Part shown: piece after piece, positions 4,391-6,897 of the stretch
Numbering within the stretch: position 1 is the first letter of the stretch
How the letters are laid out: each line of letters opens with the position of its first letter
From: Candidatus Parcubacteria bacterium
Lineage (GTDB): Bacteria > Patescibacteriota > Minisyncoccia > Minisyncoccales > JAUWXI01
Direction: 5' to 3'
DNA: 30,903 nucleotides
NCBI GenBank assembly: GCA_030616435.1
Contig: JAUWXI010000001.1
Coordinates: forward strand, 1 to 30,903
Position numbers and translations under genes: made by a program
Notes under the pieces: generated by a model
What the model was told of the DNA's origin: nothing
Database searches by the model: none
What the model saw: only the letters and a program-made list of their open reading frames with translations

Positions 4391-4418
4391 TTGATTTTAT
4401 TTTAAAAAAGAGTAAAAT
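4391..4418 (+). promoter_or_regulatory. sigma70-type promoter for the tRNA operon, divergent from pheS
   Basis: TTGATT (4391-4396), 16 nt, TAAAAT (4413-4418), ending 5 nt before the first tRNA base. Confidence 0.5.
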
Positions 4419-4423
4419 AATAA

Positions 4424-4751
4424 TGCGGGGTAGTGTAGTAGTAGCATACGAGGCTCATACATATTGTGTGACCCAAGATAGAAACATCTTGTGGAAAAAC
4501 TCTCGAAATTGCTGGAAAGCCATAAGAGCTTTTCTTGCTACAACGCAATCCAAAAGGATAAACGTGAATGCTTTAAAAAAGAAAAGATTTGGTAATCAGC
4601 AGCCAAGCCTAATACAAAAGTATTAGGAAGGTTCAGAGACTATAATGAGAGCTCCCTCCTGGTATTGGTGGGAGATGGGATAGTCCATTCCCTTTAGAAA
4701 CAAAGGGTAGTAAAGAACCTCGTGGCCTTGGTGCAAATCCAGGCCCCGCAA
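4424..4751 (+). tRNA. tRNA-Met(CAU), initiator-like, split by a group I intron (exon 1 4424-4458, exon 2 4716-4751)
   Basis: Joined exons fold as a cloverleaf: acceptor TGCGGGG/CCCCGCA plus A73, D stem GTGT/GCAT, anticodon stem CGAGG/CCTCG around loop CT-CAT-AA, T arm CTTGG-TGCAAAT-CCAGG. The acceptor stem resembles bacterial tRNA-fMet. No encoded CCA. Confidence 0.9.
4459..4715 (+). ncRNA. Group I self-splicing intron (257 nt, no ORF) at tRNA position 36/37
   Basis: P1 CATAC(4456-60)/GTGTG(4466-70) with a U.G pair at the splice site; P2 CAAGAT/ATCTTG; P3 CTCTC(4500-04)/GAGAG(4647-51); core elements P AATTGCTGGAAA, Q AATCAGCAGC, R GTTCAGAGACTA; P7 GACTA(4638-42)/TAGTC(4681-85); P6a CCTAATAC/GTATTAGG; P8 CTCCC/GGGAG; P9 CCCTTT/AAAGGG; terminal G at 4715. 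Confidence 0.93.
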
Positions 4752-4825
4752 GCCAGAGTAGCTCAGTGGTTAGAGCAACCGTTTCATAAGCGGTAGGTTC
4801 GTGGGTTCGATCCCCACCTCTGGCA
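4752..4825 (+). tRNA. tRNA with CAU anticodon (elongator Met or lysidine-modified Ile2; not resolvable by eye)
   Basis: Acceptor GCCAGAG/CTCTGGC plus A73, D stem GCTC/GAGC, anticodon stem ACCGT/GCGGT with loop TT-CAT-AA, T arm GTGGG-TTCGATC-CCCAC. No encoded CCA. Confidence 0.93.
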
Positions 4826-4827
4826 CA

Positions 4828-4901
4828 GGGGGCGTAGCTTAATTGGATAGAGTGCTGCCCTGTCACGGCAGTGGTTGCCGGTTCGAGTCCGGTCGCCCCC
4901 G
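4828..4901 (+). tRNA. tRNA-Asp(GUC)
   Basis: Acceptor GGGGGCG/CGCCCCC plus G73, anticodon stem CTGCC/GGCAG with loop CT-GTC-AC, T arm GCCGG-TTCGAGT-CCGGT. No encoded CCA. Confidence 0.96.
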
Positions 4902-4907
4902 CAAAAG

Positions 4908-4943
4908 AAAAACATCCTGAGATTATCTTCGGGATGTTTTTTT
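4908..4943. terminator. Bidirectional intrinsic terminator between the tRNA operon and the convergent gatCA/HEPN transcript
   Basis: AAAAA-CATCCTGA-GATTATCT-TCGGGATG-TTTTTTT: a stem flanked by an A-tract on the left and a T-tract on the right. Confidence 0.8.
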
Positions 4944-4958
4944 ACTTTTTAAATCTGT

Positions 4959-5468
4959 TTAAAAAATCTCCAAATTTTTAAAAGTTTTTTCGTAAATTCC
5001 AATTACTTCTTTAGCTTTCTTTTGAGTTAATCTGTAACCTGGGTCATGGACAATATTATTTCTGATTTTGTGGGCTCCCCAAACATCCTCTAAGTTAGGT
5101 AAAACATTATCTGGTACTTTTTTCAATCTTTCTCCCAAACTCTCCCCAGAATACCCCATTCTTCCCAAAACATTATTTAAAAAACTGTCGGCTTCGATTA
5201 CGGCCAGTTTGTACTCTGAAGCAATTTTCGCCTCCAACCTCTTTTTGGTTCTTTCCCAAGTTCTCACCATTCTTCGTTTTTCAAAACCTTTAAAAAGGAA
5301 AGCTTGAACAGAATACTTAGGAAAGAAAAATTCCCACCAATTACTGTGTCTAATAAAATAGATGATATAGCCAATTAAAACAGAAGAAAGAGTCAAGAAT
5401 ATGATTTTTAAGAAAAGCAGTCTTTGCTGAAGCTCAGTAGATGTAATTTGAGAAATGACCTCATTCAT
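4959..5468 (-). CDS. Membrane-anchored hypothetical protein with a HEPN-like helical domain (likely start ATG 5468, overlapping the gatA end)
   Basis: One hydrophobic segment (LLFLKIIFLTLSSVLIGYIIYFI), then a helical domain with LAVIEAD...LGERL...AHKIRNNIVH (R-x4-H motif). Confidence 0.75.
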   Translation of the reverse strand: MNEVISQITSTELQQRLLFLKIIFLTLSSVLIGYIIYFIRHSNWWEFFFPKYSVQAFLFKGFEKRRMVRTWERTKKRLEAKIASEYKLAVIEADSFLNNVLGRMGYSGESLGERLKKVPDNVLPNLEDVWGAHKIRNNIVHDPGYRLTQKKAKEVIGIYEKTFKNLEIF

Positions 5469-6897
5469 TGATTTCTTCAAAAATTTGGCCTAATTGAAAG
5501 AGACTATCTTCATAAAAAGGCTTTCCGATGATTTGCAGACCCACTGGCAGTTTTCCAACCTTTCCACAAGGAATAGCTAAGGCTGGAAGCCCGGCTAAAT
5601 TCACTGAAACAGTTAAAATATCAGCCAAATACATCGAAAGGGGGTCTTCAATCCTTTCTCCTATTTTAAAAGGTAAAACCGGAGAAACAGGGGTTAAAAG
5701 AAAATCAACTTTTTCAAAGGCTTTGTCAAAATCCTCTTTAATTAAAGTTCTTACTTTTTGGGCTCTTAGATAATAAGCCTCATAATAACCTGCAGACAAG
5801 GCATAAGTTCCCAACATTATTCTTCTTCTGACCTCATTTCCAAATCCCTCTTCCCTACTCTTTAAATAAACATCTAACAAGTTTTTAGCCCTCGGCTCTT
5901 TACTCTTTGTTATTGAATAGCCATATTTTATTCCATCAAACCTAGCCAAATTTGCCGAGACTTCAGAAGGCATAACCATATAATAAGTGGAAAGAGCATA
6001 TTTTGTGTGAGGCAAGCTCACTTCAAAAATTTTTACCCCCAGGTCCTCAATTTTTTTTATTGCTTCTTTTACAAGCTTTTCTATTTCAGGATCAATACCT
6101 TCAATAAAGTACTCTTTTGGAACGCCAATCCGAAGAGCTGAGGGCTGAAGATTAAAGGTTGGAACTTGTTTTTCAATACTAGTTGAATCAAGAGGGTCTT
6201 TTCCTGAAATTGCATCAAAAACTATCTTTGCATCTTCAACTGTTTTTGTAATAGGTCCTATCTGGTCTAACGATGAAGCCATAGCTATCAATCCATACCT
6301 TGAAACTGCTCCATAAGTAGTTTTAAGACCCACCACTCCACAAAAGGAGGCTGGTTGCCTAACTGAACCCCCGGTTTCAGAACCCAAAGCATAACAACAA
6401 AGATTAGCTGCTACTGCAGCTGCTGAACCTCCAGAAGAGCCACCTGGAACTCGAGTTAAATCGTGAGGATTTTTTGTAGGAAAAAAAGCAGAATTTTCAG
6501 TAGAAGAACCCATGGCAAATTCATCCATATTTGTCTTTCCTAAAATTACAGCTCCCTTCTCTTTTAATTTCTTTATGACTGTAGCGTCGTAAATAGCTAT
6601 GTAATTTTCTAAAATCTCAGAACCTGCTGTACATTTTACATCCTTAACTAAGATATTATCTTTTAAGGCCATGGGAATTCCAGCTAAAATGGGAAGTTCT
6701 TTTCCTCTTGAAATTAATTCATCCACTTTTTCAGCCTGGGATAAGGCAAGATCTTTTGTTTGAGTCAAAAAAGATGAAATTTTCTTATCTTTCAAAGAAA
6801 TCTCATCTAAAAAAGCTTTCGTTAACTCTTTGGCTGAAAATTCTTGGTTTTTTAAACCTAAGTGGGCTTGTTTTATTGTAAGTTCACAAAGTTTCAT
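5461..6897 (-). CDS. gatA: Asp-tRNA(Asn)/Glu-tRNA(Gln) amidotransferase subunit A
   Basis: Amidase signature ALKDNI, GKTNMDEFAMGSSTENS, PGGSSGGSAAAVA, GSETGGSVRQPA; also NLARFDG, EVRRRIMLGTYALSAGYYEAYY. Confidence 0.98.
   Translation of the reverse strand: MKLCELTIKQAHLGLKNQEFSAKELTKAFLDEISLKDKKISSFLTQTKDLALSQAEKVDELISRGKELPILAGIPMALKDNILVKDVKCTAGSEILENYIAIYDATVIKKLKEKGAVILGKTNMDEFAMGSSTENSAFFPTKNPHDLTRVPGGSSGGSAAAVAANLCCYALGSETGGSVRQPASFCGVVGLKTTYGAVSRYGLIAMASSLDQIGPITKTVEDAKIVFDAISGKDPLDSTSIEKQVPTFNLQPSALRIGVPKEYFIEGIDPEIEKLVKEAIKKIEDLGVKIFEVSLPHTKYALSTYYMVMPSEVSANLARFDGIKYGYSITKSKEPRAKNLLDVYLKSREEGFGNEVRRRIMLGTYALSAGYYEAYYLRAQKVRTLIKEDFDKAFEKVDFLLTPVSPVLPFKIGERIEDPLSMYLADILTVSVNLAGLPALAIPCGKVGKLPVGLQIIGKPFYEDSLFQLGQIFEEINE

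Follow-up and report, generated by a model that had tools for sequence, protein, structure and literature searches.

A group I intron at position 36/37 of the apparently sole initiator tRNA gene of a Parcubacteria bacterium

A stretch of 30,903 nucleotides from a Candidatus Parcubacteria bacterium (contig JAUWXI010000001.1, referred to here in its whole length as the window) contains the two halves of a tRNA with the anticodon CAU, held apart by 257 nt. This raises the question of what separates the halves, which tRNA they form once joined, and whether the combination of host and insertion site is new. A preliminary description, made from the letters alone, had proposed a group I intron without an open reading frame (ORF) in an initiator-like tRNA, and had suggested that the combination may be under-described. 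The analysis presented here makes it very probable that the window carries a single initiator tRNA gene split at position 36/37 by an ORF-less intron of the fMet.5Ug class, with splicing predicted from sequence.

The Rfam group I intron model (RF00028, gathering score 50) matches the window at 4446-4707 on the forward strand with 88.8 bits and an E-value of 1.1e-21, and model positions 1-253 are all covered. This match is the only one to RF00028 in the host genome, an assembly of 433 kb in 75 contigs that is 92% complete. With introns allowed, ARAGORN calls a tRNA-Met(CAU) at 4424-4751 with a 257-nt intron immediately 3' of the anticodon, and deleting 4459-4715 in silico leaves a 71-nt cloverleaf with a perfect anticodon stem and the anticodon loop CUCAUAA. 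The junction, reading CUCAU, intron ending in G, and then AA, lies at insertion site 36/37, so that both the intron and its position, including the restored 7-nt loop, agree with what had been proposed. Pfam searches of the ORFs 4423-4626 (+) and 4633-4866 (-) for an intron-encoded endonuclease gave no match, and as both ORFs also overlap the tRNA exons, they are regarded as spurious. The 3' exon further holds the T loop UGCAAAU, the acceptor 3' strand, A72 and the discriminator A73, while CCA is not encoded; the discriminator, A4751, abuts G4752 of the elongator-type tRNA-Met with a spacer of 0 nt (Table 1). The tRNA-Asp gene is uninterrupted, as previously described. Just beyond the tRNA cluster, ORF 4959-5480 (-) encodes 173 aa, for which Pfam gives only a Cthe_2314-like HEPN domain at 18.6 bits (E 0.002), below the cut-off of 27.1; among the relatives examined, none has a homologue of this ORF next to its tRNA cluster.

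The DNA sequencing runs containing the stretch come from marine sediment and a cold seep. The RNA runs from the same samples had none of the sampled sequence words in common with the stretch, and three RNA runs gave zero reads of it and no exon joints, a result that says nothing about absence. A separate observation comes from run X1, where contig record 5 matches window positions 4674-4708 and stems from a different organism in the source sample that has an intron of this type; its intron ends in AAAG, after which comes an initiator-like 3' exon, AACCTCGAGACCCC...

Table 1 Features of the split tRNA locus and its intron, with window coordinates.
Feature	Position	Strand	Evidence
Promoter-like site, TTGATT + 16 nt + TAAAAT	4391-4418	+	Consensus scan; consensus match alone
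5' exon, initiator tRNA nt 1-36: U1, D arm, anticodon-stem 5' strand CGAGG, C32 U33, CAU	4424-4458	+	ARAGORN with introns, spliced cloverleaf, orthologues
P1, 4455-4461 with 4465-4471, splice-site wobble U4458.G4468	4455-4471	+	Pair counts
Group I intron, 257 nt, starts after U4458 (U-1), ends at omega-G4715	4459-4715	+	RF00028, 88.8 bits
P2 hairpin, GAAA loop 4481-4484, bulged U4492	4472-4494	+	7/9 pairs with 2-5 standard pair types
P3 5' strand, partner 4647-4651	4500-4504	+	5/5 pairs formed in 24/24, each with compensatory changes
P4 5' strand, partner 4596-4601	4510-4515	+	Nearly invariant, 23 to 24 of 24 paired
P5 (4520-4522 with 4590-4592) and optional long extension	4519-4593	+	RNAalifold, MFE, covariation
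P6 (4602-4604 with 4630-4632) and P6a hairpin (4608-4615 with 4620-4627)	4602-4632	+	Pair counts
P7 5' strand: G4636, bulged A4637, GACUA 4638-4642; partner 4681-4686	4636-4642	+	Invariant, 24/24
P8 hairpin	4652-4674	+	Compensatory changes at 7 positions
P7 3' strand, UAGUCC	4681-4686	+	Invariant, 24/24
P9 hairpin, GAAA loop 4697-4700	4690-4707	+	Compensatory changes at 4/7 pairs
3' exon, initiator tRNA nt 37-73: A37 A38, anticodon-stem 3' strand CCUCG, T arm	4716-4751	+	Spliced cloverleaf, ARAGORN, orthologues
Elongator-type tRNA-Met(CAU), uninterrupted	4752-4826	+	ARAGORN; RF00005, 68.9 bits
tRNA-Asp(GUC), without intron	4828-4902	+	ARAGORN; Rfam tRNA model
Terminator-like hairpin and T run at the end of the tRNA cluster	4906-4943	+	Consensus scan

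The secondary structure was assessed by counting base pairs in an alignment (A1) of 24 initiator introns from one order, the window copy included. Of the 60 pairs that RNAalifold finds on this alignment, 38 show compensatory changes, although the aligned introns are related and the counts of pair types do not represent independent events; the program also recovers the anticodon stem formed between the two exons. Folding of the single window sequence at minimum free energy (MFE) gives the anticodon stem, P1-P6a, P8 and P9. The compensatory changes support a predicted structure with P1, P2, P3, P5, the P5 extension, P6a, P8 and P9. U-1 and omega-G are conserved throughout (24/24), every intron ending in G directly before the exon AA, and the GUG guide is likewise found in all 24. 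The P1 pairs flanking the wobble covary, those on the intron side included, and P1 extends to tRNA position 33, which pairs with the base following the guide and covaries with it perfectly (U-A in 16 sequences, C-G in 8). Further into the core, P6 is invariant and P6a shows up to six pair types per position among the 24 sequences; outside P4, P6 and P7, the helices have between two and six standard pair types at a position. Only the 4 nt of J7/3 (UAAU, 4643-4646) lie between P7 and the 3' strand of P3, in agreement with the preliminary description, and the splice-site wobble, the P7 strands GACTA (4638-4642) and TAGTC (4681-4685) and the terminal G4715 that it had named are all confirmed by the sequence and the pair counts of the 24 homologues. 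In group I introns, P7 is the guanosine-binding helix, and by analogy the P7 of the window intron is presumed to play this role.

The intron has an optional P5 extension of ~65 nt, present in 13 of the 24 homologues and absent from 11. Its P5a helix (4529-4536/4579-4586), which had been recognised from the start, is lengthened by two more pairs (4537-4538/4570-4571) into a 10-pair helix with an A-rich bulge at 4572-4578, beyond which follow an inner helix at 4544-4546/4564-4566 and, at the tip, a hairpin at 4548-4551/4556-4559. The end loop reads AAAA in the window copy, whereas most relatives have GAAA or GUAA. RNAalifold, applied to the 12 sequences that align over the extension, agrees with the single-sequence MFE fold, and the extension shows covariation. 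The comparison with P5abc of larger group I introns suggests that this arm stabilises the core.

Other features could have the opposite effect. While a GNRA loop caps P2 in all 24 sequences and P9 in nearly all of them, the two GAAA loops of the window copy, flanked by A and C as first noticed, are closed by A.C, where relatives have G-C or A-U, and P8 of the window copy contains one U-U mismatch. P1 is short, and P10 amounts to 1 to 2 pairs at most (A4716 with U4467). Together, the short P1, the minimal P10 and the A.C-closed loops could weaken folding. A P9.0 pairing (U4688 and U4689 with A4713 and A4714) was considered and is not claimed, as one sequence covaries and two misfit. With P2 present, P7.1/7.2 absent and GNRA loops in L2 and L9, the architecture would fit subgroup IC3; the P4 and P7 strings differ from every IC3 seed of Williams 2020 (bioRxiv 10.1101/2020.01.27.920355) and are similar to the generic Rfam consensus.

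The anticodon CAU is shared by three kinds of bacterial tRNA, and the identity of the host tRNA therefore has to be settled beyond its anticodon. The gene order tRNA(CAU)-1, tRNA(CAU)-2, tRNA-Asp is syntenic throughout the order, in genomes with an intact as well as in those with a split tRNA-1. Intron-less tRNA-1 orthologues at the syntenic locus start with CGCGGGG and end with CCCCGCAAC, giving a C1xA72 mismatch on a GCGGGG/CCCCGC stem, the acceptor stem of E. coli tRNAfMet. By comparison, tRNA-2 has G1-C72 and canonical D and T loops and is elongator-like. The split tRNA could instead be a tRNA-Ile2(CAU), modified with lysidine and reading AUA, as is the host of the Azoarcus intron, with which it shares the anticodon, the site 36/37 and the CAU/GUG core of P1. 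Such a host would also fit a spliced tRNA that lacks three textbook marks of initiators, namely the 1x72 mismatch, the three G-C pairs of the anticodon stem and A11-U24. Yet the C1xA72 mismatch and initiator acceptor stem of the syntenic orthologues speak against it, and the lysidine synthetase expected for this reading, TilS (TIGR02432), scores over cut-off in none of 61 relatives, compared with 10 of 14 control genomes, and reaches at best a weak 21-bit PP-loop match in the host genome. Moreover, a gene for tRNA-Ile(UAU), followed by tRNA-Val(GAC), is conserved in the host genome and 19 relatives (in the host at C34:1325-1401, locus L054:126-202), and with tRNA-Ile(UAU) present a tRNA-Ile2(CAU) is not expected; AUA in this order is apparently read by a UAU anticodon instead of lysidine. 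The assembly contains just two CAU tRNAs, the second being the elongator-like one. A tRNA-Ile2 host is thus rejected as extremely improbable. Judged by sequence, the split tRNA is the initiator, and the sole one as far as the assembly shows; the initiator-type host proposed earlier is upheld by the orthologues, the lack of TilS over cut-off and the presence of tRNA-Ile(UAU).

This identity rests on orthology of the gene sequences and not on the textbook identity set, as the initiator of the host is atypical: U1 pairs with A72 and A29 with U41, the T loop contains G55, and the D loop lacks GG. Initiator tRNAs of the order more generally show the T loop UGCAAAU, with G at the expected U55, and a 7-nt D loop, AGUAGUA, that lacks the GG pair (orthologues in loci L007-L016). 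U33 is near-universal in tRNAs; many initiator tRNAs of the order carry C33. Searches of the 92%-complete host genome found neither methionyl-tRNA formyltransferase (fmt, TIGR00460) nor peptide deformylase (def, PF01327), both of which are present in 10 of 10 bacterial control genomes, and of 61 relatives, only 28 have fmt above its cut-off. Where fmt is missing, the initiator position 1:72 tends to be paired, as U1-A72 in the host and in relatives G032 and G051, and as A1-U72 in G006. The missing fmt and def, along with the paired 1:72, suggest initiation free of formylation. Among the other tRNAs of the host genome is an unusual 86-nt tRNA with the anticodon UGU and discriminator A (C43:16830-16915, locus L232:1331-1416; RF00005, 49.6 bits). 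It has a 15-nt variable arm with a GAAA cap and thus a class II shape, and it is absent from the 60 relatives searched; a normal tRNA-Thr(UGU) is also encoded (C58:10233-10305).

Whether the organism has a further initiator gene bears on how the split copy is to be read. The exon sequences match a single locus (4424-4751) in the 92%-complete assembly, and it could be argued that the intron or the split gene is in decay and no longer functional, with a working initiator residing in the unassembled 8% of the genome. The fragmentation into 75 contigs leaves room for such a gene, and both the P8 mismatch and the A.C pairs that close the two GNRA loops may be read as signs of decay. However, the catalytic-core elements are all intact and identical to those of the 23 homologues, the anticodon stem and cloverleaf formed by the exons are still perfect, and the window locus is the syntenic initiator locus. 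In addition, relatives with 100% completeness (G001, G240 and G294) likewise show the split copy alone. Decay is consequently considered very improbable, and the split gene is taken to be the working initiator.

The class to which the intron belongs has been listed before. Williams 2020 (bioRxiv 10.1101/2020.01.27.920355) distinguished four classical classes of tRNA introns, Leu.3Ug, Arg.5Ug, fMet.2Ug and Ile2.5Ug, all of them IC3, and added 17 classes to these. Among the seeds of that study is Yba21.fMet.5Ug, an initiator intron that has U-1 and omega-G and follows loop position 5, and the seeds also include Asp.4Ug and Asn.4Ug (35/36), matching the mention in the preliminary description of introns at 35/36 in Asn and Asp tRNAs. 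The placement in that description of cyanobacterial fMet introns at 33/34 and of the Azoarcus type at 36/37 corresponds to fMet.2Ug and Ile2.5Ug in the same source. Group I introns in tRNAs of the Candidate Phyla Radiation (CPR) have further been reported to hide these tRNAs from detection (Lui et al. 2021, PMC8172020). No experiments on the fMet.5Ug class were found in the literature, where it has been catalogued by software only.

The same-site split initiator is found in at least 24 of 301 genomes of the order, a lower bound obtained by BLAST with the pre-tRNA followed by a search for the exon junction (CAU, an intron ending in G, and AA). Most other genomes of the order have an uninterrupted initiator, among the matches listed by BLAST with the intron-less initiator. 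A scan for the core motif over one genome per prokaryote species retrieved at least 119 matching stretches, and in 68 of the 80 loci fetched from these, an initiator tRNA gene is interrupted at that same position. These loci are nearly all from Patescibacteria, including Staskawicz-, Kaiser-, Nealson-, Gribaldo-, Yanofsky- and Nomurabacteria, Paceibacterota and others. Together with the listing of fMet.5Ug, the counts at the order and species level show the combination of host and site to be catalogued and common, which removes the novelty that had been supposed for it. The initiator intron at 36/37 is under-described experimentally, yet neither rare nor uncatalogued, and the window intron is most probably an ordinary, well-preserved member of fMet.5Ug. 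Group I introns are frequent in the order as a whole, with a match in 65 of 151 genomes. They also occur in its tRNA-Asn(GUU) at 35/36 (L022, L025 and L021) and tRNA-Thr(UGU) at 33/34 (L024, L035 and L029), and the cores of these introns are 70-86% identical to the window intron over the short stretches aligned by BLAST.

In many relatives, a candidate mobility gene stands next to the split tRNA. Half of the intron-bearing genomes (12/24) have an ORF of ~230 aa, named family A here, between the initiator and the elongator tRNA, and another three (3/24) have an ORF of a second family, B, with a significant Pfam LAGLIDADG_3 match. Eight of the 24, the window locus included, have neither, and the remaining one ends at a contig edge; no homologue of either family is found within the window. 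Family A proteins have an N-terminal helix-turn-helix (HTH) and a conserved helix, LxxGxxxYWxEG. A Foldseek search of the AlphaFold model (pLDDT 81) against the PDB gave nothing significant (best E 0.045), and a profile comparison with the Pfam-positive family B aligned just the HTH. The top domain matches of the model in VIA-align all have LAGLIDADG folds, namely WhiA (Z 7.2 and 6.8), I-DmoI (6.7), an intein endonuclease (6.3) and E-DreI (5.8), although this range of Z, 5.6-7.2, lies under the level that excludes chance. Based on these middling fold matches and the LxxGxxxYWxEG motif, family A is probably a LAGLIDADG-like putative nuclease.

Copies of family A are found in 148 of 301 genomes of the order, where they often adjoin intron-bearing tRNA genes, those for tRNA-Asn and tRNA-Thr among them, and at least five adjoin uninterrupted initiator genes (G266, G182, G028, G083 and G276). 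As all four combinations of presence and absence exist, the intron and the putative nuclease gene are separable. The host genome itself has two family A copies, C2:3959-4621 (-) and C18:1215-1895 (+) (loci L230:936-1622 and L231:1215-1895), which are ~30% identical paralogues. Both lie flush with an intact tRNA-Glu gene, one immediately preceding tRNA-Glu(CUC) and the other immediately following tRNA-Glu(UUC), and no intron was found near either of them.

Compared with known systems, the window intron shares with the fMet.5Ug seed Yba21 the initiator host, the site 36/37, U-1 and omega-G, as well as, in strings compared by eye, GAAAUUGC.GGAAA, CAAUCAGCAGC, UCAGAGACUAUAAU and AUGGGAUAGUCC and the capping of P2 and P9 by GNRA loops. 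There is no difference of kind between them, the window copy being marked by the optional long P5 arm and its A.C-closed tetraloops. The intron of the Azoarcus pre-tRNA-Ile(CAU) (Ile2.5Ug, IC3) is similarly ORF-less and inserted at 36/37 after CAU, lacks P7.1/P7.2, and has both a minimal P1 (exon CAU, guide GUG and an intron-intron extension) and GAAA loops on P2 and P9. It differs in residing in tRNA-Ile2 instead of an initiator, in its core strings, UUCGGCG/CGCCGA and GUAGAGACUA as opposed to UUGCUGG/UCAGCA and UCAGAGACUA in the window intron, and in its J2/3 and J7/3, and it is without the 65-nt P5 extension. The cyanobacterial tRNA-fMet intron (fMet.2Ug) also splits an initiator anticodon loop, but does so at 33/34 and not at 36/37. 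Some of its copies contain a PD-(D/E)XK endonuclease, I-Ssp6803I in the case of Synechocystis, whereas the window intron is ORF-less and the LAGLIDADG-like gene of its relatives is free-standing, outside the tRNA. The pairing in these relatives of an ORF-less intron with a separate putative nuclease gene at the target gene resembles the 'collaborative homing' described for phages, unlike the window locus, which has no nuclease gene.

From these features, a maturation path can be proposed. The initiator, elongator-Met and Asp tRNA genes would be co-transcribed from a promoter near 4391-4418, and the intron would fold into its P1-P9 core, with P1 presenting the U4458.G4468 wobble. A free guanosine bound in P7 would then attack after U4458, whereupon the terminal G4715 would take the same site, and ligation of the exons would re-form the anticodon loop CUCAUAA. 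The tRNA would be completed by RNase P, by trimming of the 3' end and by addition of CCA. Mobility, now or formerly, would probably be provided by the free-standing LAGLIDADG-like gene that stands beside the tRNA in relatives. Splicing in the cell may, however, need more than the RNA. Many group I introns require protein help to splice, and a cofactor could be called for by the short P1, the P10 of 1 to 2 pairs, the AT-rich composition (40% GC) and the weakened closing pairs of the tetraloops. A real intron that is removed only with the aid of a protein is nonetheless rather unlikely, given that the core is compact and complete, that two GNRA loops and an added P5 arm usually stabilise the fold, and that no maturase-type ORF lies inside or beside the intron. 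Classical tRNA introns, furthermore, self-splice in vitro. The favoured path remains self-splicing of the initiator precursor.

With no further initiator gene detected, splicing of the intron should be a precondition for translation initiation in this organism, although at 92% completeness a second initiator gene may lie in the missing part of the genome. If the sole initiator matures only through a guanosine- and Mg-dependent ribozyme, the intron could throttle initiation, and it could be speculated that it makes initiation responsive to nucleotide and ion status in a bacterium that is ultra-reduced and apparently free of formylation. Such a role is quite improbable on present evidence; if true, it would help explain why the intron persists in many Patescibacteria even without a nuclease gene.

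For annotation, the consequence is more immediate. Default ARAGORN and the Rfam tRNA model both leave the split tRNA at 4424-4751 undetected and call just the two downstream tRNAs, as had been predicted for ordinary annotation. With standard tRNA finders missing the split gene, the genome would wrongly seem to lack an initiator tRNA, and the same gap affects at least dozens of Patescibacteria species. The 24 members from the order and the 68 further split-initiator loci constitute a comparative set, and the 24-member set provides a well-supported secondary structure, including the optional P5 arm and a guide that covaries with tRNA position 33, for a class hitherto listed by software alone. 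For the biology of the organism, the split initiator would add another essential, apparently single-copy gene that depends on ribozyme chemistry.
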